From an uncultured Myxococcales bacterium (GTDB lineage Bacteria > Myxococcota > UBA4151), in contig CAXGWI010000037.1 of the NCBI GenBank assembly GCA_964013405.1, positions 1-25,902 on the forward strand: DNA of 25,902 bases. The letters are read 5' to 3'. The position numbers and the translations under genes were made by a program. Of the stretch, positions 5,447 through 16,542 are shown piece by piece. The notes beneath the pieces are model-generated. The model was not told the origin of the DNA. It saw nothing but the letters and a program-made list of their open reading frames with translations, and did not search any database. How positions within the stretch are numbered: the first letter of the stretch is position 1; each line of letters begins with the position of its first letter.

Positions 5447-6379
5447 ATGACCATCCTTGTCACCGGTGCCACCGGCTTTGTCGGAACCCGTCTTTGCGCA
5501 GAGCTCAGGCATATCGGCAGGCCGCCCCGAGCGCTCGTTCGGAAAGAGAGCGTGACACGGGACTTGGAGGCGGCTGGCCACAGGATCTCGGTCGCCGACT
5601 GGGAGACCGGGGCCGGTCTTGAGGCTGCGATGGAGGGTGCTGAAGCGGTGGTGCATTGCGCCGGCGGCGGTCGCGTGCGCCGACGGAGGGACTACTGGCA
5701 GCAGAATACGGTGACGACGAGGCGTCTCCTTGAGGCGATCGCCTCACCGGCCTCGACTGTGAAGCGTCTCGTGCTTCTGTCCTCCTTAGCGGCTCGGGAA
5801 CCCGTTTCACGCTATGGCGAGAGCAAGAAAGCGGCGGAACAGTTGACCCGAGATGGCTCGGTGCCCACCGCGATTCTGCGTCCCCCGGGGATTTATGGCG
5901 CTGGCGATGACCGCCTCCTCCCACTCTTTCGCAGTGTGAAGCGAGGCTGGGCCATGGTGCCTCACCAGCACCTTCTTGTTCCCTGGCTTCATGTGGACGA
6001 TTGCGTTCGGGCCATCATCGCTTGCCTCGATAGCGATCTCCCCTCCGGGACGGTCTTGGAGGTCGATGACGGCCAGCCCCGCGCACTTGGCGACATCCTC
6101 AACTTGATCGCTGGGCTGATGGACCGCCGGCCGCCTCGGGTGGTTCAGCTTCCTGCCCCGGCCCTTTATTCGGCCGGAGCGATTGCAGAGCTTGGTGCCC
6201 TCCTGCGGGGACAATCGACCCTCTTTAATCGGGATAAAGCGCGGGAGTTACTCCGGAAGGACCTCGCCATGGATGCTTCTTTGGCCCGGCGCGTTCTGGG
6301 CTGGGCGCCGCAGGTGGCGCTCGAGGTGGGCTTGGCCGAGACCTATGACTGGCTTTCAACCCAAGGGCGACTTGGCTAG
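5447..6379 (+). CDS. NAD-dependent epimerase/dehydratase (extended SDR, 3-beta-HSD-like)
   Basis: MTILVTGATGFVG Rossmann motif, VVHCAG, catalytic YGESK, LRPPGIYG and HVDD. The ATG at 5447 is preferred over the TTG at 5411. Confidence 0.9.
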   Translation: MTILVTGATGFVGTRLCAELRHIGRPPRALVRKESVTRDLEAAGHRISVADWETGAGLEAAMEGAEAVVHCAGGGRVRRRRDYWQQNTVTTRRLLEAIASPASTVKRLVLLSSLAAREPVSRYGESKKAAEQLTRDGSVPTAILRPPGIYGAGDDRLLPLFRSVKRGWAMVPHQHLLVPWLHVDDCVRAIIACLDSDLPSGTVLEVDDGQPRALGDILNLIAGLMDRRPPRVVQLPAPALYSAGAIAELGALLRGQSTLFNRDKARELLRKDLAMDASLARRVLGWAPQVALEVGLAETYDWLSTQGRLG

Positions 6380-7341
6380 GCCACCTTGCCCGTACTGCCG
6401 CATGCAGCCATCGATCGTAGGTAGCGAGCGACTTCAACCATGCCTTCGACGCCCGTGGCATCGGCCAGAGCACTGGAGTAGTTGGTGGTACCATTGATGT
6501 CGTAGGTGTAGCGGCGTCCCCGAGCATCGGTCACGAATTCGATGCCTGCGACCTCGATCCCTTCCACGGCACAGAGTCGTAGGTAACTTTGGACTAACGG
6601 GTCGTCTTCGCTCAGGTCAGCGACCGAGAACTTGGGTCCTTGATCAAGTTCAGCGGGGCAGTTGCCGAAGTCCGATCGGGGCACCTGGCAGGCATCACTG
6701 GGGCACAGTTCGAAGCCATCGTTGGTTGAGCTGTGCATGGCATAGAGGAACTTCCCACCGACGATCTCCACCCGCGTGATCCGGTCGTGTTTGGGTTCGA
6801 TGTAGCTTTGCAGAATGATCTTTCCGTCGGGGCCGAGATCAAAGTCTGGATCCTTCAGGTCGTATTCCAGTTGGTCCACGCTGTAATAGAGTTTGATGCC
6901 CAGGCCTTTGCCACCCTGGTTGTGTTTGGTGATAAACGGACCTTCAATACGACGAGCAGCTTCGAGAATCTGTTGGTTGCCCACCGCAAGCAGCGTGCGG
7001 GGCGAAAGAATGCCGTGTTTTGACAGGGCGATCTCTTGGCGAAGCTTACTCATCTCCAGTTCGAAGGCGTTGAGGCCATTGATGACCCGGCGCCCATGGG
7101 CCTGCAGCCAGGCCAGGAGTTCACGAGTCAGGGGGACACTGAAGTCGTGACCCCGGGTATGGGAGGAGGGGCTGATTCGGTTCAACCACAGGCCTTGGGG
7201 CGGGGGGGCAGCCGGATCGAGAAGTCCTGAGTCGATGGGCACGAGATTGACTGGGAAGCCCTCGGATTCCAGTGCCTCGGTCAGGGGCGGAAGCCAGGCT
7301 GGGTTTTCATAAATGATGTGAACGGTGGGGAGGCTGCTCAT
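6376..7341 (-). CDS. ATP-grasp ligase (RimK/glutathione synthase-like family)
   Basis: NRISPSSHTRGH, RRVINGLNAFELEMSK, PFITKHNQGGKGLGI, ILQSYIEP, RVEIVGGKFLYA, AGIEF...YDINGTTNY. AAGGA SD at 7349-7353. Confidence 0.88.
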   Translation of the reverse strand: MSSLPTVHIIYENPAWLPPLTEALESEGFPVNLVPIDSGLLDPAAPPPQGLWLNRISPSSHTRGHDFSVPLTRELLAWLQAHGRRVINGLNAFELEMSKLRQEIALSKHGILSPRTLLAVGNQQILEAARRIEGPFITKHNQGGKGLGIKLYYSVDQLEYDLKDPDFDLGPDGKIILQSYIEPKHDRITRVEIVGGKFLYAMHSSTNDGFELCPSDACQVPRSDFGNCPAELDQGPKFSVADLSEDDPLVQSYLRLCAVEGIEVAGIEFVTDARGRRYTYDINGTTNYSSALADATGVEGMVEVARYLRSMAACGSTGKVA

Positions 7342-7388
7342 GGTGTATTCCTTGTTGGGTTCAAGCCGTGGCAGGCACCGGAGCGTAT

Positions 7389-7434
7389 GAGAACAGATCC
7401 AGCGCCCGAACGACCCGCTGGGTTCGCTGTCCTC
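7389..7434 (-). promoter_or_regulatory. Stem-loop between the poly-Cys ORF and the ATP-grasp gene (candidate attenuator element)
   Basis: mRNA GAGGACAG pairs with CUGUUCUC (8 bp, one G-U), enclosing a CCAGCG/CGCUGG 6-bp stem. No U-tract follows. Confidence 0.5.
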
Positions 7435-7463
7435 AAGTGTTGATTGTGTGGATTAAGAGAGGA

Positions 7464-7547
7464 TCAGCTCGCCTGCGGGGCGGTGGAACAACAACAACAA
7501 CAGGCGCAGTTGCCGGCGGTCATTTGGATGTTCACGGTGCTGATCAT
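7464..7547 (-). CDS. Poly-cysteine small ORF / putative leader peptide MISTVNIQMTAGNCACCCCCSTAPQAS (27 aa)
   Basis: ATG at 7547 to TGA at 7464, containing TGC-GCC-TGT-TGT-TGT-TGT-TGT. It ends 122 nt upstream of the ATP-grasp start on the same strand. A second in-frame ATG is at 7523. Confidence 0.75.
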   Translation of the reverse strand: MISTVNIQMTAGNCACCCCCSTAPQAS

Positions 7548-7553
7548 GACTGG

Positions 7554-7582
7554 AGGCTAGCGGCGCTTCGGGCGGGCCGCAA
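7554..7582 (-). promoter_or_regulatory. Putative sigma70-type promoter for a leaderless transcript starting at the poly-Cys ORF
   Basis: Minus strand reads TTGCGG (7582-7577), a 17-nt spacer, TAGCCT (7559-7554), then 6 nt before the ATG at 7547. There is no SD in front of that ATG. Confidence 0.6.
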
Positions 7583-9914
7583 GTGACTTTCTTCCGACTC
7601 GGGCAACTGCCGGAGTTTTGCGGCGTCGCAGGAGCATGGCGAGGAGAAAGAGCAGGCCGATCTCCCGAGCCGGCGCATTCTGACAGCCACATCCGCTTTC
7701 TGGTGGGAGCCCAGCACCGGCATCGGTGCTGATACCTCCATCGGCAGCAGGCGGTTCAGAGGGACCCGCATCAGAGCCTGTCGGGGGCTCTGGGGGCGAT
7801 TCTGGGGGGGGCGGTGCGGGGGCACAGCCCGCATCCCCGGCCTGGACCAAATGCAGAGCGATGTCATCGACGTAGGCATCGTTGTCGCTGCCTGCGTGTC
7901 GGGTGCCTTGCAGTCGTACACGGATCGATCTGGTCATGGCCGGGATGGGCGTCGTCAGGCCCATACGCTGCCAGCCCCGGGCCCGACGTGTGAGGGCATC
8001 GCTGGTACTCAGCAAGGTGCCATCGCCGGCAAGAAACTGCAGGTCCACCCGCACCTCGTCGTTGCCATTAAAGTCGCTCAGCCAGGCGCTCAGGCGGGCG
8101 TGAAGGTCACCGGCATCCACCGCATCTGACCGATCGCTGAGGTCGACATCTTGATAAGCTTCCGCTTCATCGGCTGCATCGCACACACCGCCGACGGCAA
8201 AGTAGCGCTCGCCGCTGTGGGGTTCGATCCCATCACACTCACCATCGGTGACCGATTCAAAGTAACCTGCAACGACAGTCCAGCCCTCGGTTCCCCCTTC
8301 GGCATCGCCGTTGACGACCAGGTTCGGGCCCCCAGGGGCCGCGGTGGTCGTGAAGGTAACGGGCTCTGACCAAGCACTCCAGGCCAGACCTTCATCCCGA
8401 TAGCGTAGCCGCCAGCAGTAGTTCGTGTTCTCATCCAGTCCTTCGAAGACCTCGTCTTCCAGCAAGTCGTTCGCTTGGTCGTCGGTCTCGAAGTAGAGAT
8501 TCATGCTTTGTTTCCAGGATTCGAAGGCCGGGGGGTCGAAGTCGTCACAGGCTTTGGCGATCTGCCAATGGGTGGAGCCGTGGCCATCACCGTCTGGATC
8601 CCGGTAGGGACTGCCCTGCAGGGTTAAGCAATCGGGACGTACCGCTTCGGAATGGGCCCACGCTGTGGGTTGTTGCGGGGCTTCGTTGTGGCGCCGGATC
8701 GTCAGTCGGTCGGTCTCCTCGTTGTCCCGGATCGCCCCCGGTCGCCCCCGGCTGTAGCGGCGCAGGGTGAAGGCCGCTTCATCGCCGGCGATGATGTCGG
8801 CCACCACAAAACCGTAATCGGCCGTCGTCATGACGAACTCGGGGTAGTCCTGTTGGGCGTACTCGCCCCAGCCATCGATCTTTCCGCCGGCCGTGGCCAC
8901 GTTCATCATGGTGTGGTTGTGATCCCGGGACTGGCCGCGCGAATAGCCGTGGGTGTGGCCAAAGAAATGAACGCTCGGCTTGTCGCATTCGGTGGAGAAG
9001 GTCTCGAGGCGCTCGATGACCTCACCGGTAAAGGAGGTGTTTCCGGCGATCCAGAGTTCGCTCTCAAAGGGGTGATGCAATTGAGCAAAGACAAAGTCGG
9101 TCAGCGGGTCTTCACAGGTTTCAGCCAGCAACTCGGTGAGCCAGTCTAACTGCTGCTGGGTTCGATAACCGTTGTTGGAGTCGAGTCCGATGATGCGCAC
9201 ATTGCTCCGGTCGATCCACCACCAGTGCTCTTCCAGGCCAAAAGACCCGTTCTCTGGCAGATGGAAGTAACTGAAGAAACGGGGACTATCTCGTTCGTGG
9301 TTACCGGGGACGGGGTAGAGCGGCACTTCGGCGAAAAGCTCGGCGGCCGGGGCAAAGAAGGTCTCCCGCCACTCGTCGATTCGCTGGCCATTGTCGACGA
9401 GATCACCGGCGATCATGACCAGGTCCACGTGGTCGCTGAGCTCAGCGCCGTGCTGGGCTCGAATATGGCTGATGACGCCCTCGTTCACCACCTCCCGAAA
9501 CATCTGGGGCTGACGGGAGTCCCGCTGCATGTCGCTCATGGCGACGAGGCGGGTGGCTGCTTCGTCGGGACGCTCTGAAGGGGTCCGAAAGCGATGGATC
9601 TCGCTGACCGCCGCTTCCGTTCGAACTCGATAGTGATAGCTCTGGTTTGCTTCCAGGCCACTGATTTCGACCGTGTGGATGCGGGCGCTCCCGGCACTGA
9701 GTCCGGCTTCACCGGAGCTCGTTTGGCCCAAGGCTTCGGTGGGGCCCCATTCAACGATGCTCTCTGCGCCGTGACTGGTCTCCCACATGATGACCGCCGA
9801 TGTGGGGTGGATATCTTGGAGGTAGGGTTGGACATGGAATTCCTGGGCCTGGGCGGGCAGTGCCAGCAGGCAACTTAACCCCAAGAAGACGGCAGCTTCG
9901 CGTCGGTGCATCAT
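7557..9914 (-). CDS. Secreted purple-acid-phosphatase-like metallophosphoesterase with FN3-like and beta-sandwich domains and a MYXO-CTERM-like anchor
   Basis: Signal peptide (AQA cleavage), PAP N-terminal domain (PYLQ...W.T...GLEANQSYHYRV), metal motifs SDMQ, GDLV, GNHE, HHP and GHTH, a second FN3-like segment (YCWRLRYRD), an NLVVNGDAE...VDDI domain, a Pro-rich linker, and SGCGCQ-hydrophobic-RRRK at the C-terminus. Confidence 0.88.
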   Translation of the reverse strand: MMHRREAAVFLGLSCLLALPAQAQEFHVQPYLQDIHPTSAVIMWETSHGAESIVEWGPTEALGQTSSGEAGLSAGSARIHTVEISGLEANQSYHYRVRTEAAVSEIHRFRTPSERPDEAATRLVAMSDMQRDSRQPQMFREVVNEGVISHIRAQHGAELSDHVDLVMIAGDLVDNGQRIDEWRETFFAPAAELFAEVPLYPVPGNHERDSPRFFSYFHLPENGSFGLEEHWWWIDRSNVRIIGLDSNNGYRTQQQLDWLTELLAETCEDPLTDFVFAQLHHPFESELWIAGNTSFTGEVIERLETFSTECDKPSVHFFGHTHGYSRGQSRDHNHTMMNVATAGGKIDGWGEYAQQDYPEFVMTTADYGFVVADIIAGDEAAFTLRRYSRGRPGAIRDNEETDRLTIRRHNEAPQQPTAWAHSEAVRPDCLTLQGSPYRDPDGDGHGSTHWQIAKACDDFDPPAFESWKQSMNLYFETDDQANDLLEDEVFEGLDENTNYCWRLRYRDEGLAWSAWSEPVTFTTTAAPGGPNLVVNGDAEGGTEGWTVVAGYFESVTDGECDGIEPHSGERYFAVGGVCDAADEAEAYQDVDLSDRSDAVDAGDLHARLSAWLSDFNGNDEVRVDLQFLAGDGTLLSTSDALTRRARGWQRMGLTTPIPAMTRSIRVRLQGTRHAGSDNDAYVDDIALHLVQAGDAGCAPAPPPPESPPEPPTGSDAGPSEPPAADGGISTDAGAGLPPESGCGCQNAPAREIGLLFLLAMLLRRRKTPAVARVGRKSLAARPKRR

Positions 9915-11502: not shown

Positions 11503-13080
11503 TTATTCGGGCTTTAGTTTCGCCATATCGGAATCGACCTTGTCCAGCACAGTGGGCTCGAGGTCGCCGGCTCGTCCCGCATTAAAAGCGGTGATGCCCC
11601 TTTCCTCGTCGGTACCGGGGATGGTGTTGTCCAAGACAAGTGCCGCGAAGGCACCCACCGCCATGCCCGTTTGGCCTAGGGTGTTTAGGATGCTGGCGAG
11701 CAACGTGGAGAGGTCTGTGATGATGGCATCGAGGTGGCAACGGAGGGAGTAACCACAGGCTGCGACCTCGGCCGCTGCCGGATCCTGATTCAAGACGATG
11801 GGGTTCGCGGCAAAGTACTCGGGCACGCTCAGTCCCATAAAGATGGCAAAGCCGATGATGAAGAGGTTGCGGCTGGAGTTGAGGTCAACGAACTGGAGGT
11901 TCGAGAGCCCAACGGAAGCGATCATGCCGAACATGGCACAGTACATGCCCCCAACAATGGGTTGGGGGATGGTGGTAAAAAGGGCACCGAACTTCGCCAC
12001 CAGCCCCAAGACGATCATGATCATAGCGCCTGCTTGGACAACCCGCCGAGCGCCGACTCGGGTCAGGCCGATGGCGCCGATATTTTCGGAGTAACTGGTG
12101 GTGCCATTACCCGTGCCCATGATGCCCGCAATGAGGCTGCCGATGCCTTCGAACATGATGCCTCGGTTGACGGTTTTGGCGTCTGGCGTGGGGGCGCCTG
12201 CAAGTCGTGCGCAAGCATAGTAATCGCCAATACTCTCAACCATGGAGGCGATGTAGCCAGCGATCATCCCGACGATGGCGGCAGCCCCAAAGACCGGCAT
12301 TCCCCATTGAAAGGGGTAGGGGACACGGATCCACGGAGCGCTATGCAGGTTGGCGAGGCTCGTGTGGGCAGGGTGGGCTGCGGTGACGACTTCGCCGGCG
12401 TCATTGAGGACGGCACCGGGGAAATAACCCAGGTAGGTGCATACGGCTGCCACTGCCCAGGCCCCGACGATGGCCAGAAGGATGGGATAGAGTTCGAAGG
12501 CTCGATGCTTCTTCCTCAGATACTGGCTGAACAGGATGATCAAGAAGATGGTCAAGCCACCAATGGGCCAATGGCTACCGGCCACCGGGGCACCAAACTT
12601 AAAGAGCGCCAAGCCGATGAGCGCGATGGTGGGTGCGATCACAATCGGGCCAATGAAGCGAAGCATCTTGCCCACCAGACCGGTTGCGCCAACGATGATC
12701 TCCATGATTGCACCAACGATGATCGCACCTTGCACGTGCTGCATGCGGACCTCGAAGCCAGCCTCTGCAACGCCCGCCATGCCACAAATAGCGAAGGTGG
12801 GTGCGAGGAAGGAGAAGGTGCCGCCTTGGATGATAGGCAGACGGTTGCCCCAGGTCGTTTGTAGGAGCGTGGTGATGCCGCTAACAAAGAACATGGTGGC
12901 GATCAGGGCGCCCAGTTGGGCCGGATCCTTATCGATGCCTAAGGGCTTGCTGAGCAGCAGAGGAATCGCCACCGTGGAGCCAAACATCGTCAAGTAATGC
13001 TGAAAGCCCAGGGCGAGGGTCTCACCGGTCGGCGGGCGATCATCGATACCGTAGATCAGGTCGTTTTCATTTTCGGACAT
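11503..13080 (-). CDS. NCS2/NAT family nucleobase (uracil/xanthine) permease
   Basis: LGFQHYLTMFG (QH motif), SGITTLLQT, RLPIIQG, ESIGDY, and the NAT signature TTSYSENIGAIGLTRVGARRV. The ATG at 13080 is preferred over the 13125 start in the ORF track. Confidence 0.93.
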   Translation of the reverse strand: MSENENDLIYGIDDRPPTGETLALGFQHYLTMFGSTVAIPLLLSKPLGIDKDPAQLGALIATMFFVSGITTLLQTTWGNRLPIIQGGTFSFLAPTFAICGMAGVAEAGFEVRMQHVQGAIIVGAIMEIIVGATGLVGKMLRFIGPIVIAPTIALIGLALFKFGAPVAGSHWPIGGLTIFLIILFSQYLRKKHRAFELYPILLAIVGAWAVAAVCTYLGYFPGAVLNDAGEVVTAAHPAHTSLANLHSAPWIRVPYPFQWGMPVFGAAAIVGMIAGYIASMVESIGDYYACARLAGAPTPDAKTVNRGIMFEGIGSLIAGIMGTGNGTTSYSENIGAIGLTRVGARRVVQAGAMIMIVLGLVAKFGALFTTIPQPIVGGMYCAMFGMIASVGLSNLQFVDLNSSRNLFIIGFAIFMGLSVPEYFAANPIVLNQDPAAAEVAACGYSLRCHLDAIITDLSTLLASILNTLGQTGMAVGAFAALVLDNTIPGTDEERGITAFNAGRAGDLEPTVLDKVDSDMAKLKPE

Positions 13081-13196
13081 GGCTGTATTTTTCCGTTCGA
13101 TGCTTTCGGCAGGCCCCGCTACCATAAATCCGAAGACTTCCTAAGTGGAGGTTTTGGCAGTAAAGAATGCTGCCGAAAGTTAAAAAGGAGTCATCC

Positions 13197-14069
13197 ATGG
13201 CACGCAATGTCCGAGTGGGCCTCATCCAGGCCGCCAATGTGATTAATGATGAGTCTGTCCCCGTCGCAGAGATTCAGGAAGCGATGTTTCAAGCCCACCT
13301 CCCCTTGATCGAAGAGGCCGGTGAGGCGGGGGTTCAAATCCTGGGCCTGCAGGAAATTTTTAACGGCCCCTACTTTTGTCCGGGTCAGGACAAGCGCTGG
13401 TACGACGCTGCGGAGCCGGCCGATGGCCCGACCGTGGAACGCCTCCGGCCTTACTGCCAAAAGTACGACATGGCGATGGTGGTACCCATTTATGAGCGGG
13501 CGATGGCCGGTGTGTATTACAACTCGGCCGTGGTCCTTGATGCCGATGGTTCCACCGTTGGCCTCTACCGGAAGAACCACATCCCCCAGACCAGCGGCTT
13601 TTGGGAGAAGTACTTCTTCAAGCCGGGGAACCTCGGTTACCCCGTCTTCCAAACCAAGTACGGTAAAGTGGGCGTCTACATTTGTTACGATCGCCACTTT
13701 CCCGAAGGAGCCCGGCTTTTGGGACTTAATGGCGCCGAGGTGGTCTTCAACCCTTCGGCGACTGTGGCCGGTCTAAGCCAGTATCTCTGGGAACTCGAGC
13801 AGCCGGCGCACGCGGTCGCCAACGGCTACTTTATGGCGGCCAGTAACCGGGTCGGCACCGAGGCGCCTTGGAACATCGGTAAGTTCTACGGCACCTCCTA
13901 CATCTGCAATCCCCGGGGCGAGTTTCTAGCCAAAGCCGGCGAGGACAACGATGAGGTGGTCTACGCCGACTGTGACTTTGATATGATCGAGGAAGTTCGC
14001 AAGGTCTGGCAGTTCTACCGGGATCGGCGCCCGGACACCTATGACGACATGGTTCGGCAGTTGCCCTGA
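13197..14069 (+). CDS. Nitrilase-family beta-ureidopropionase (N-carbamoyl-beta-alanine amidohydrolase)
   Basis: Nitrilase triad motifs LQEIF, YRKNHIP and ICYDRHFPE, plus FWEKYFFKPGNLGYPVF. AAGGAG SD before the ATG at 13197. The pyrimidine-catabolism context supports the call. Confidence 0.88.
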   Translation: MARNVRVGLIQAANVINDESVPVAEIQEAMFQAHLPLIEEAGEAGVQILGLQEIFNGPYFCPGQDKRWYDAAEPADGPTVERLRPYCQKYDMAMVVPIYERAMAGVYYNSAVVLDADGSTVGLYRKNHIPQTSGFWEKYFFKPGNLGYPVFQTKYGKVGVYICYDRHFPEGARLLGLNGAEVVFNPSATVAGLSQYLWELEQPAHAVANGYFMAASNRVGTEAPWNIGKFYGTSYICNPRGEFLAKAGEDNDEVVYADCDFDMIEEVRKVWQFYRDRRPDTYDDMVRQLP

Positions 14070-15370
14070 TGACCAGCAGCCAGGACGTTCGCGACAAGCA
14101 TGAGCGCCACATGTTCCCCGCAGTGGGGAACTACTATGAAGAGCCGGTGGTGCTCACCGAAGGCAAGGGCAGCCGGATCAAGGATCTCGATGGCCGCGAG
14201 TACCTTGATTTCTTTGGTGGTATTCTGACCGTCAGTGTAGGGCACGCCAATGAGCGGGTGACTGACGCTGTCGTGAAGCAGGCACAGAGGATTAGCCACG
14301 TCAGTGCTTTGTATCCGACGGTGCCGATGGTGGACTTGGCCGAACGGCTGGCCAACAGCACGCCGGGACAACTTCAAAAATGTTTCTTCACAGCCAGCGG
14401 AACCGAAGCTGATGAAACAGCGGTCATGATGGCCCAGGTGTTCACCGGCAACATGGAGGTGGTGGCATTACGCCACGGTTATTCAGGGCGCAGTATGTTG
14501 GCGCAGAGTCTGACGGCCCACAGCACCTGGCGAGCGCTTCCGACACAGATTGCGTCCATTAAGCATGCTCATCCTGGTTATTGTTATCGCTGCCCGTTCG
14601 GGGAAAGCAGTGAGTCCTGTGGGATGCGCTGTGCGAAGGATATCGAGGATCTCATCCAGACGACGACCACTGGGCGCATCGCGGGGATGCTGGCGGAACC
14701 GATCCAGGGGGTGGGGGGATTCATTACCCCGCCCAAGAAATACTTCCAGATCGCTGCTGAAATCATTCGCAAGTATGGCGGGGTTTTCATCAGTGACGAG
14801 GTTCAGACCGGCTTTGGTCGGACGGGGAAGATGTGGGGGATCGAGCAGTATGGTGTCGAACCGGACATGATGACGATGGCAAAGGGGATTGCGAATGGCT
14901 TTCCCTTGGGCGCGGTTATCGCCACGCCAGCGATTGCCGATTCCCTGGAGAAGCCCAGCATCTCGACCTTTGGGGGTAATCCGGTGAGCAGTGCGGCGGC
15001 GAATGCTGTTCTTGATGAAATCGAGCAGGAGAACTTGGTGGAAAATTGCCGGGTTCAGGGCCAGCGTTTGCGAGCCGGCTTAAAAGAGATCCAGGGGAAA
15101 CATCCTCAGATAGTCGGTGAAGTGCGCGGCATGGGCTTGATGCAGGCCCTTGAATTGGTCGTGGATGAAACCCGCAAAGATCGGACCCCAAACCCGGCGG
15201 CAAAGGCAGCGCTGTTTGAGGAAACGAAGAAGCGAGGATTGCTGATTGGTGCCGGTGGCCTCTACGGTAATGTCATTCGAATCTCGCCCATGTTGAATGT
15301 GACCGCTGATGAGGTGGATGAAGCCCTCGCTGGCTTGTCTGAAAGTTTCGACGCCATCGACCCGCGGTGA
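14069..15370 (+). CDS. Class III PLP aminotransferase (probable beta-alanine aminotransferase, AGXT2/PYD4-like)
   Basis: YLDFFGGILTVSVGH, SGTEA, EPIQGVGG, SDEVQTGFGRTG, TMAKGIANG (PLP lysine), STFGGNP and VRGMGLM. Coupled to the upstream gene by a TGATG overlap. Confidence 0.9.
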   Translation: MTSSQDVRDKHERHMFPAVGNYYEEPVVLTEGKGSRIKDLDGREYLDFFGGILTVSVGHANERVTDAVVKQAQRISHVSALYPTVPMVDLAERLANSTPGQLQKCFFTASGTEADETAVMMAQVFTGNMEVVALRHGYSGRSMLAQSLTAHSTWRALPTQIASIKHAHPGYCYRCPFGESSESCGMRCAKDIEDLIQTTTTGRIAGMLAEPIQGVGGFITPPKKYFQIAAEIIRKYGGVFISDEVQTGFGRTGKMWGIEQYGVEPDMMTMAKGIANGFPLGAVIATPAIADSLEKPSISTFGGNPVSSAAANAVLDEIEQENLVENCRVQGQRLRAGLKEIQGKHPQIVGEVRGMGLMQALELVVDETRKDRTPNPAAKAALFEETKKRGLLIGAGGLYGNVIRISPMLNVTADEVDEALAGLSESFDAIDPR

Positions 15371-15438
15371 ATTGCCAGGCTGGGTTTTCGCTCTTCGGCG
15401 ATCATGATAGCCCCAAGACCTGAATTGAGGAGTTGGCC

Positions 15439-16542
15439 ATGGCCGATTTGAGTACGACCGTAAACGGGATGAAGTTCCCGAACCCCTTTGTTTTGGGCAG
15501 CGGGCCACCTGGCACGAACGCTCGAGTGATGAATCGGAGCTTTGCGTTGGGCTGGGGAGGGATCGTCTGCAAGACCATTAGTCTTGAGAACGATAAGGTC
15601 GCTAACGTGACCCCCCGTTACGCTCGGTTGAAAAATCGAACCGACAAAACCGTGATTGGCTTTGAGAATATTGAGTTGATCAGTGACCGCCCCTTTGATG
15701 CCTGGTTGGATGATTTGGCTGAGTGCAAACAGGCCCATCCAGACAAGATGCTCATCGCCAGCATTATGGAAGAGTATTCGAAGGATGCCTGGATCGAGAT
15801 TACGGAGCGGATCGCAGCCACCGGCGTGGACGGCTTCGAACTGAACTTCAGTTGTCCCCATGGCATGCCTGAGCGCAAGATGGGCGCTGCCATGGGCGAG
15901 AACCCCGATATTGTTGAGGAAGTGACGGGATGGGTGGTAGCCGCCACCGATTTGCCGGTTTGGGCCAAGATGACACCTAACCTGACGGACATTACGGTGC
16001 CGGCGCATTCGGCTGTCCGTGGGGGTGCCCATGGCATCAGCGCCATCAACACCATCAAGTCGATTCTCGGCATCAACCATAAGACCCTTCGGCCCTTGCC
16101 GACGGTCCAAGGCTACACCGTGCCTGGGGGTTATTCCGGCGCTGCCGTCCGTCCCATCGCACTTCGACATGTCATGGAGTTAGCGGCCGGTATGCCTGAT
16201 GGCGTGACGATCTCTGGGATGGGGGGAGTAGAGACTGCGGAGGATGCGGCAGAGTTCATCCTTATGGGCAGCCACACGGTTCAGGTTTGCACCGGGGCGA
16301 TGCTGCAGGGCTATGAGATGATCGAGAGCCTCTGCGAAGGCTTGTCCAACTGGATGGACGAGCGGGGCTTTGCCAGCCTGGATGACTTCCGTGGGCATTG
16401 CCTTCAGTACTTCACCAGCCATGCGGATTTGGTCGAGCGGCAACGACAGGCCAAGATTGAGAAGGCCGGTCGTTCGAACCGAGACAACATGTGGAAGGGT
16501 GACATCGCCAAGGAGACCGAATCGCTCACGAGTAACCTCTAG
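15439..16542 (+). CDS. preA: Dihydropyrimidine dehydrogenase FMN subunit, lacking the C-terminal ferredoxin domain
   Basis: NPFVLGSGPP, GFENIELISDRP, LIASIM, ELNFSCPHGMPERKMGAAMG, WAKMTPN, SAINT, GGYSG.AVRPIAL and VQVCT. GAGGAG SD upstream. Confidence 0.92.
   Translation: MADLSTTVNGMKFPNPFVLGSGPPGTNARVMNRSFALGWGGIVCKTISLENDKVANVTPRYARLKNRTDKTVIGFENIELISDRPFDAWLDDLAECKQAHPDKMLIASIMEEYSKDAWIEITERIAATGVDGFELNFSCPHGMPERKMGAAMGENPDIVEEVTGWVVAATDLPVWAKMTPNLTDITVPAHSAVRGGAHGISAINTIKSILGINHKTLRPLPTVQGYTVPGGYSGAAVRPIALRHVMELAAGMPDGVTISGMGGVETAEDAAEFILMGSHTVQVCTGAMLQGYEMIESLCEGLSNWMDERGFASLDDFRGHCLQYFTSHADLVERQRQAKIEKAGRSNRDNMWKGDIAKETESLTSNL

Follow-up and report, generated by a model that had tools for sequence, protein, structure and literature searches.

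In an uncultured Myxococcales bacterium, a short open reading frame (sORF) with a run of cysteine codons lies ahead of an ATP-grasp ligase gene, which raises the question of whether this sORF senses cysteine and how its translation could reach the ligase. The window, as we call the whole stretch of DNA that was analysed, is 25,902 nt long, and the leader and the ligase lie on its minus strand. The candidate regulated gene (6376..7341) encodes a RimK/LysX-like ATP-grasp ligase of 321 amino acids (Pfam RimK, E 1e-6) and abuts a convergent gene. The original prediction, made from the sequence of the window, held that ribosome stalling on a leaderless poly-Cys sORF switches the RNA fold and turns this gene on.

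The Leader sORF and Its Predicted Promoter

The ORF list of the window confirmed the proposed poly-Cys frame, a minus-strand ORF (7547..7464) of 27 amino acids that contains CACCCCC. Its first Cys codon is TGC (7508–7506), and the remaining five are consecutive TGT codons (7502–7488). By codon usage and sequence, the segment comprising TGC GCC and the five TGT codons (7488..7508) is the putative sensor, designated region 1. Ahead of the sORF, we found TTGCGG (7582–7577), a 17-nt spacer, TAGCCT (7559–7554), 6 nt, and the ATG at 7547, with no Shine-Dalgarno (SD) sequence. This geometry is as originally described, but the element does not sit in the intergenic gap as supposed: it falls within the last codons of the upstream purple-acid-phosphatase-like gene (7557..9914, minus strand), whose TAG stop forms the first half of the −10 box. 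That gene is not conserved beside the leader. Each of the five family leaders has TTGCRY at the position of the predicted −35 box (7577..7582), and TTG-N17 is the dominant arrangement, present in 43 of the 51 loci that have the geometry. Similarly, TANNNT-N6-ATG, which in the window includes the predicted −10 box (7554..7559), is kept in all five, though their upstream gene ends elsewhere or differs. A generic sigma-70 scan returned 0 sites and did not report the TTGCGG/TAGCCT element.

The (TGT)5 run of the leader is the only one in the 3.9-Mb genome. The only other run of five TGY codons was considered as a candidate and rejected, as it lies antisense to an Asn-rich gene. Among 37 short ORFs in the genome with the −35/−10-at-ATG geometry, the leader was the only one holding two consecutive Cys codons; this test thus returned no second leaderless poly-Cys sORF in the genome, and hence no regulon. 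One tRNA-Cys (GCA) was found in the genome, and given this, the wobble-read UGU codons may sharpen cysteine sensing. An RNA-library contig with 99+% identity covers 7495–7159, from the Cys codons into the gene; it comes from one study, gives neither strand, start, nor level, and may be of DNA origin. No RNA contig covers 7572–10800, an absence that is uninformative.

Conservation of the Leader Across ATP-Grasp Loci

We collected 172 ATP-grasp loci and retained 139 non-redundant ones with an upstream flank of 300 nt or more; the other 33 were duplicates or had flanks that were too short. Weak matches to other ATP-grasp families (L013–L030) were excluded before counting. The leader test required a Cys-rich, stop-ended frame 40–260 nt before the ATP-grasp start. 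It was positive in 79 of the 139 loci, or 78 once a false match to CPCPCP (L065) was removed, compared with 3/139 on the antisense strand, 0/126 downstream, and 0/118 and 0/113 further upstream; the loci are kin, so these counts are not independent trials. The poly-Cys sORFs that the original prediction suggested looking for upstream of ATP-grasp orthologues are therefore present in more than half of the loci. From the end of the sORF to the ATP-grasp start, the distance was 64–151 nt in the 78 loci. When the loci were binned by protein identity, from >65% down to <45%, the leader was found in 7/11, 29/32, 26/48, 16/30, 1/13, and 0/5. The remaining 61 of the 139 loci had no leader by this test. 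Weaker leaders in L033 and L040 (CCLC and CCRC) fell narrowly below the threshold, so that 78 is a lower bound. In L185, two tandem poly-Cys leaders occupy 273–80 nt before the ATP-grasp start, the first of them followed by a U-tailed hairpin.

The start geometry accompanies the sORF (7464..7547 in the window) across these loci. We searched with the pattern TTG-N3-N15-18-TA-N4-N5-8-RTG, which was adopted in relaxed form after a strict −10 test gave 30/79. In the Cys frame, the pattern occurred at the start in 51 of 78 loci against 0.5 expected (27 of 78 with strict −35/−10), and in the Leu and Val frames in 0/78 each. An SD-like 4-mer preceded 9 of the 78 leader starts compared with 71 of the 78 ATP-grasp starts. 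The Cys codons showed a TGT:TGC ratio of 300:165 in the leaders and 29:257 in their ATP-grasp genes. In the leader peptides, Cys made up 23% of residues and was the sole shared residue; outside the Cys cluster, even the best-conserved positions were shared by no more than roughly one third of the loci. Judged from sequence, these findings tie an apparently leaderless poly-Cys sORF to the ATP-grasp gene.

The run might instead be a (TGT)n microsatellite that arose by chance, or encode poly-Leu, since TGY runs give Leu when the frame is shifted and a 79-aa ORF that overlaps the leader reads LLLLL here. We find this hardly credible given the fixed position before one gene family, the near-zero controls, and the 165 TGC codons, which interrupt the repeat yet preserve Cys; the restriction of the promoter-at-start geometry to the Cys frame disposes of it. 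It is also very improbable that the peptide itself is the product, either as an ATP-grasp-modified precursor (a graspetide-like RiPP) or as a metal- or thiol-binding microprotein. Graspetide clusters place a small ORF beside an ATP-grasp gene, a layout that this locus matches, and RiPP ATP-grasp enzymes appear among the fold matches of the ligase from rank 21. Graspetide precursors, however, carry acidic acceptors and a conserved core, whereas the window peptide contains no Asp, Glu, or Lys, 43 of the 78 peptides are without Asp or Glu, and the non-Cys residues are unconserved, which disfavours a RiPP precursor. Moreover, the enzyme occurs without the peptide at the 61 loci noted above, with a SAM-I riboswitch in its place in two, and a peptide product would leave the RNA complementarity and the TGT bias unexplained. 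We consider it very likely that a real Cys-codon attenuator precedes the ATP-grasp gene.

Predicted Competing Helices Downstream of the Cys Codons

The leader RNA was divided into regions numbered after classical leader-peptide attenuators, in which the pairings 2:3 and 3:4 compete. Region 2 (7459..7480) consists of the post-Cys codons, the stop codon, and 5 nt; region 3 (7414..7434) and region 4 (7389..7408) are the 5′ and 3′ arms of the hairpin at 7434–7389. Region 3 can pair with region 2 or region 4, and region 4 with region 3 (predicted OFF) or with region 5 further downstream (predicted ON). Across the family, the first hairpin of ≤ −9 kcal/mol was taken as 3:4; 7 of the 78 leaders had none, leaving 71 for analysis.

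According to the original prediction, the UGUUGUUG tract itself pairs with C/A-rich segments downstream. Every element named there is present, namely the hairpin at 7434–7389, the C/A segment (within 7458–7435), and CAACAA (7357–7352) overlapping the AAGGA SD (7353–7349). The pairing itself was not supported by computed folds: between the Cys tract and the spacer, 0.1 base pairs were expected in the window and 0.0 in its four relatives, and forcing the pairing cost +10.4 kcal/mol on the C/A loop and +2.8 to +6.6 kcal/mol on CAACAA, depending on the register. The C/A-rich loop of the 2:3 helix (7435..7458) is unpaired in the minimum free energy structure and varies in length and sequence among family leaders. 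A model of the Ms5788A type, in which a duplex between the Cys codons and the C/A segments close to the SD is prevented by ribosome stalling, is thus very improbable for the window, although the complementarity exists, the cheapest CAACAA register costs only the +2.8 kcal/mol given above, and the tract pairs with the spacer by at least 4 bp in 12 of 71 homologues, most strongly in a cysM-linked clade. Over the 71 leaders, the own spacer was better than the median foreign spacer in 32, i.e., there was no cognate preference, and the one strong duplex of the Cys tract in the window has regions 3–4 as its partner and not the C/A segments. The cysM-linked clade (L059, L062, L142, L151, and L153, with L064) has longer Cys tracts of up to 13 Cys, tract–spacer pairing of 13–19 bp, and an Ms5788A-like fold; in five of these loci, cysM follows the ligase gene immediately.

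The strand predicted to compete in the window is instead region 2. It had 9.1 expected base pairs compared with 4.7 for shuffled sequences, 1 of 20 shuffles was as good, and its own region 3 ranked within the top 1.4% against 70 foreign ones. In the computed fold, the probability of 3:4 was 0.83 with region 2 blocked and 0.0 with region 2 free, so that a 2:3 antiterminator and the 3:4 hairpin are mutually exclusive, as in trp/his-type attenuators. Among the 71 leaders, 2:3 pairing exceeded the shuffled mean in 65, and in 32 it was better than 19 or all 20 of the shuffles; region 2 preferred its own region 3 in 63 leaders, with 41 of 71 for region 4 as the control. Once the complete hairpin was transcribed, region 2 displaced it at equilibrium in 25 of 69 loci compared with 2 of 69 for shuffled sequences, and because displacement was confined to these, the choice between 2:3 and 3:4 must be co-transcriptional in most loci. 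This displacement test took the strongest hairpin, which picks 4:5 in some loci. An earlier automated switch test, which chose weak helices, passed 58 of 77 native leaders, but the controls also passed often (39% of the shuffled and 47% of the swapped ones), and the whole-leader folding z-score was only −1.07. Rfam gave no match at the gathering score, with one chance match (E 3.7) and nothing at the leader. The idea that ribosome stalling switches the fold thus stands insofar as competing helices are predicted, but the pairing strand would be provided by the post-Cys codons and not by the Cys codons.

Predicted Output of the Proposed Switch in the Window

Downstream of the hairpin, the folds place region 5 (7372..7382), an 11-bp partner of region 4, or of the SD region when 3:4 holds, and region 6 (7342..7353), which comprises the SD AAGGA (7353–7349) and the spacer to the ATG. 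The 4:5 duplex of the window beat 100 of 100 shuffles; it was significant in four of the five members of the window's clade (L001, L111, L003, L004, and L005; support 99) and in 14 of 71 leaders overall. Opening the ribosome binding site (RBS; −14..+6) of the window was predicted to cost 6.6 kcal/mol with 3:4 fixed compared with 2.8 kcal/mol with 2:3 fixed; this wider footprint was adopted because the difference for the window had been only 3.0 vs 1.7 when the 4 nt of the SD were tested. RBS opening was dearer in the OFF than in the ON state in 5/5 clade members at four footprints, these five members being kin. Across the whole family, the SD opening cost was higher in OFF than in ON by at least 1.5 in 7 of 69 loci and showed the reverse in 14 of 69, i.e., there was no family-wide trend.

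At equilibrium, the full-length window RNA kept 4:5 whether region 2 was blocked or free, and because of this preference, the OFF state must be a kinetic trap. The OFF fold lay 2–3 kcal/mol above the minimum (in the window, 2.1 above the free ensemble), with findpath barriers of 23–25 (24.9 in the window) that disregard strand displacement. The same RBS costs, 2.8 vs 6.6, predict that an untranslated leader in the window would be ON.

On the basis of the observed sequence, conservation, frame, and complementarity, we infer a transcription start site, translation, stalling, folds in vivo, and a level of output that would combine as follows. A leaderless transcript would begin at the ATG (7547), with the ribosome trailing RNA polymerase. 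When cysteine is plentiful, the ribosome would get to the UGA and cover region 2, so that 3:4 (7434–7389) would form during synthesis; region 5, left free, would then pair over the SD (5:6), and the resulting OFF state would be held as a kinetic trap. When cysteine is scarce, the ribosome would stall on the UGU run, region 2 would capture region 3, and region 4 would pair with region 5, so that the SD would stay open and the gene would be ON. Roughly half of the homologues would use this choice between 2:3 and 3:4 to govern an intrinsic terminator instead. The direction foreseen in the original prediction, from low cysteine to ON, agrees with the modelled folds and is likely. That a translational relay onto the SD is the main output in the window is a reading we somewhat favour. 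As a whole, the data are best explained by a ribosome-driven cysteine attenuator that would switch the ligase ON as charged tRNA-Cys runs low, through a predicted relay that frees the RBS, with a rough probability of 0.55.

The main rival retains the sensor and the 2:3/3:4 switch but takes the output in the window to be premature termination at 3:4, with 4:5 merely tidying the read-through RNA; the terminator could be weak intrinsic, Nus-aided, or Rho-dependent. A U-rich tail (at least 5 of 8) follows 3:4 in 34 of 71 leaders, compared with 14 of 146 hairpins after the long ORFs of the genome, which serve as a rough control. Many U-tailed homologues have textbook-like terminators after 3:4 (L042, L128, L171, and L182), and within the clade of five, the tail attains 5 U of 8 in two members. 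The lack of a family-wide SD switch, the presence of rho in the genome, and a pyrimidine-rich stretch after the hairpin also speak for termination. In the window, however, only 4 of the 8 nt after 3:4 are U and the lower stem takes up this tail, leaving no good U tract, and an intrinsic-terminator scan detected nothing at this hairpin. The conserved 4:5 helix would also be superfluous, because region 5 is not yet transcribed at the point of termination. We therefore regard termination as a rather unlikely main output in the window, and both termination and the relay predict that low cysteine turns the gene ON.

More tentatively, and at slightly less than even odds, a single conserved 2:3/3:4 switch may have been adapted to three outputs ahead of one and the same ligase gene: an intrinsic terminator, which would be the "missing" classical attenuator for cysteine, the three-helix SD relay of the window, and direct pairing of the Cys codons in the cysM clade. 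These would belong to a widespread, unpublished family of leaderless cysteine attenuators in Myxococcota-like bacteria, and a role in sulfur starvation would then be assigned to a large family of uncharacterised ATP-grasp enzymes.

The ATP-Grasp Ligase and Its Probable Links to Sulfur Metabolism

The ligase scored under all NCBIfam cut-offs. Its assignment as a RimK alpha-L-glutamate ligase was not supported, as the TIGR00768 score (59 bits) was below the family cut-off of 143.4. The predicted model (pLDDT 88.5) has an ATP-grasp fold, with ArgX, LysX, and RimK as the closest structures (TM 0.66–0.72, 16–20% identity); a single-sequence PDB search gave no match. The family is large, with 3196 matches among 8000 candidates scored. 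C213 and C218 were invariant among 60 ligase sequences. Within residues 209–229, the motif GFELCP..C is invariant and C228 nearly so; they lie next to a loop modelled with low confidence, and this region is a possible metal site or catalytic thiol.

The genome carries a separate gshB-like gene and two cysK/M-like genes; with the queries used, neither a cysE above the cut-off nor a PAPS reductase was found in this 94% complete genome. In five related loci, the ligase gene lies directly before cysM, and four of these extend to mec, a small cysO-like ORF, and moeZ. A SAM-I riboswitch replaces the leader in L090 (3804–3915) and L101 (2147–2258), at a distance of approximately 1.1 kb from the ATP-grasp gene that follows; in L090, a panB-like gene separates riboswitch and ligase. 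In the tree, both loci are nested inside a leader-bearing clade. An Rfam search of 46 loci, nearly all without the leader, returned these two SAM-I riboswitches only and no T-box. No neighbour gene was conserved across the whole ligase family. The adjacency to cysM and the replacement by SAM-I point to sulfur-amino-acid metabolism, and the ligase probably belongs to a sulfur-amino-acid starvation response.

Several other elements were observed. Five loci without the leader (L073, L080, L100, L180, and L187) have a CCTAC..TAGG-like palindrome 60–135 nt before the start; with a loose pattern, it occurred in 6/64 vs 1/78 loci, one match being the SD itself. This palindrome, which we take to resemble an Rrf2/CymR site, is possibly a repressor site. 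The very close kin L096, L098, and L105 share a non-coding motif about 130 nt before the start with no Rfam match. Elsewhere in the window (11503–16542), genes for an NCS2 permease, a carbon-nitrogen hydrolase, a class-III aminotransferase, and a PreA-like dehydrogenase look like a reductive pyrimidine-degradation cluster.

Comparison With Known Systems

In the literature searched, we found no description of this leader system, in line with the original prediction, which was aware of no account of the mechanism in Myxococcota-like bacteria; subscription journals and supplements, including that of 10.1101/834739, lay outside this scope and may list some cases. The word "cysteine" is absent from the main text of PMC11109978 and PMC11550727, and term look-ups in PMC2965389 and PMC4833913 gave nothing relevant to Cys leaders. 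Cys leader peptides have been predicted before cys/cbs operons in Actinobacteria, which, in the portion of that report available, likewise have Cys-codon runs near the stop of a short ORF but no conserved hairpins or terminators (PMC1262725); here, in contrast, the helices are the conserved feature. For the ligase, a parallel is LdmS, an ATP-grasp enzyme of staphylococci that joins L-Asp to L-Met, is controlled by CymR/CodY or an S-box, and, according to the sections available, is reported from Firmicutes only (PMC9486568). In both cases, an ATP-grasp ligase is predicted to be induced by shortage of sulfur amino acids through interchangeable sulfur-sensing regulators. LdmS was absent among the listed sequence or fold matches of our ligase, and the parallel is an analogy, not a family assignment. 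The regulator would give a first hint at the function of this large ATP-grasp family, which is so far labelled by similarity alone.

The closest precedents are mycobacterial Ms5788A and Rv2334A, described in the available text of the preprint as polycysteine leaderless sORF attenuators (Canestrari et al., bioRxiv 10.1101/834739). As in those systems, our sORF has leaderless geometry and consecutive Cys codons near its end, lies approximately 100 nt before the gene, and is predicted to relieve repression upon stalling, with translational output as the best model (10.1101/834739, text available). In Ms5788A, as far as that text goes, the SD region is paired with the Cys codons themselves, and mutating the start codon locks the system OFF (10.1101/834739). 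In the window, by contrast, the pairing strand would be formed by the post-Cys codons, through which the hairpins compete, and the prediction for a leader that is not translated is ON. The phylum (Myxococcota) and the target gene also differ from those of the mycobacterial attenuators, with no sign of homology. With trpL, hisL, and pheL (architecture as in 10.1101/834739, text available), the leader shares the order of sensor codons followed by 2:3 against 3:4, and the U-tailed terminator is shared by 34 of 71 homologues. It differs from them in sensing cysteine, in its apparently leaderless start, and in targeting an uncharacterised ligase rather than a biosynthetic operon; in the window, the good U tract is lacking and regions 5 and 6 are added.

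The window thus lacks one defining feature of each type, the Cys–SD pairing of Ms5788A and the U tract of trp. In the literature found, leader-peptide cysteine sensing has experimental support in mycobacteria only, where it acts through direct SD pairing. A trp-like version with competing hairpins, conserved in dozens of uncultured genomes and coupled to a leaderless start, would bring both to a further phylum, and if true, the family would form a natural series in which one switch moves from transcriptional to translational output.
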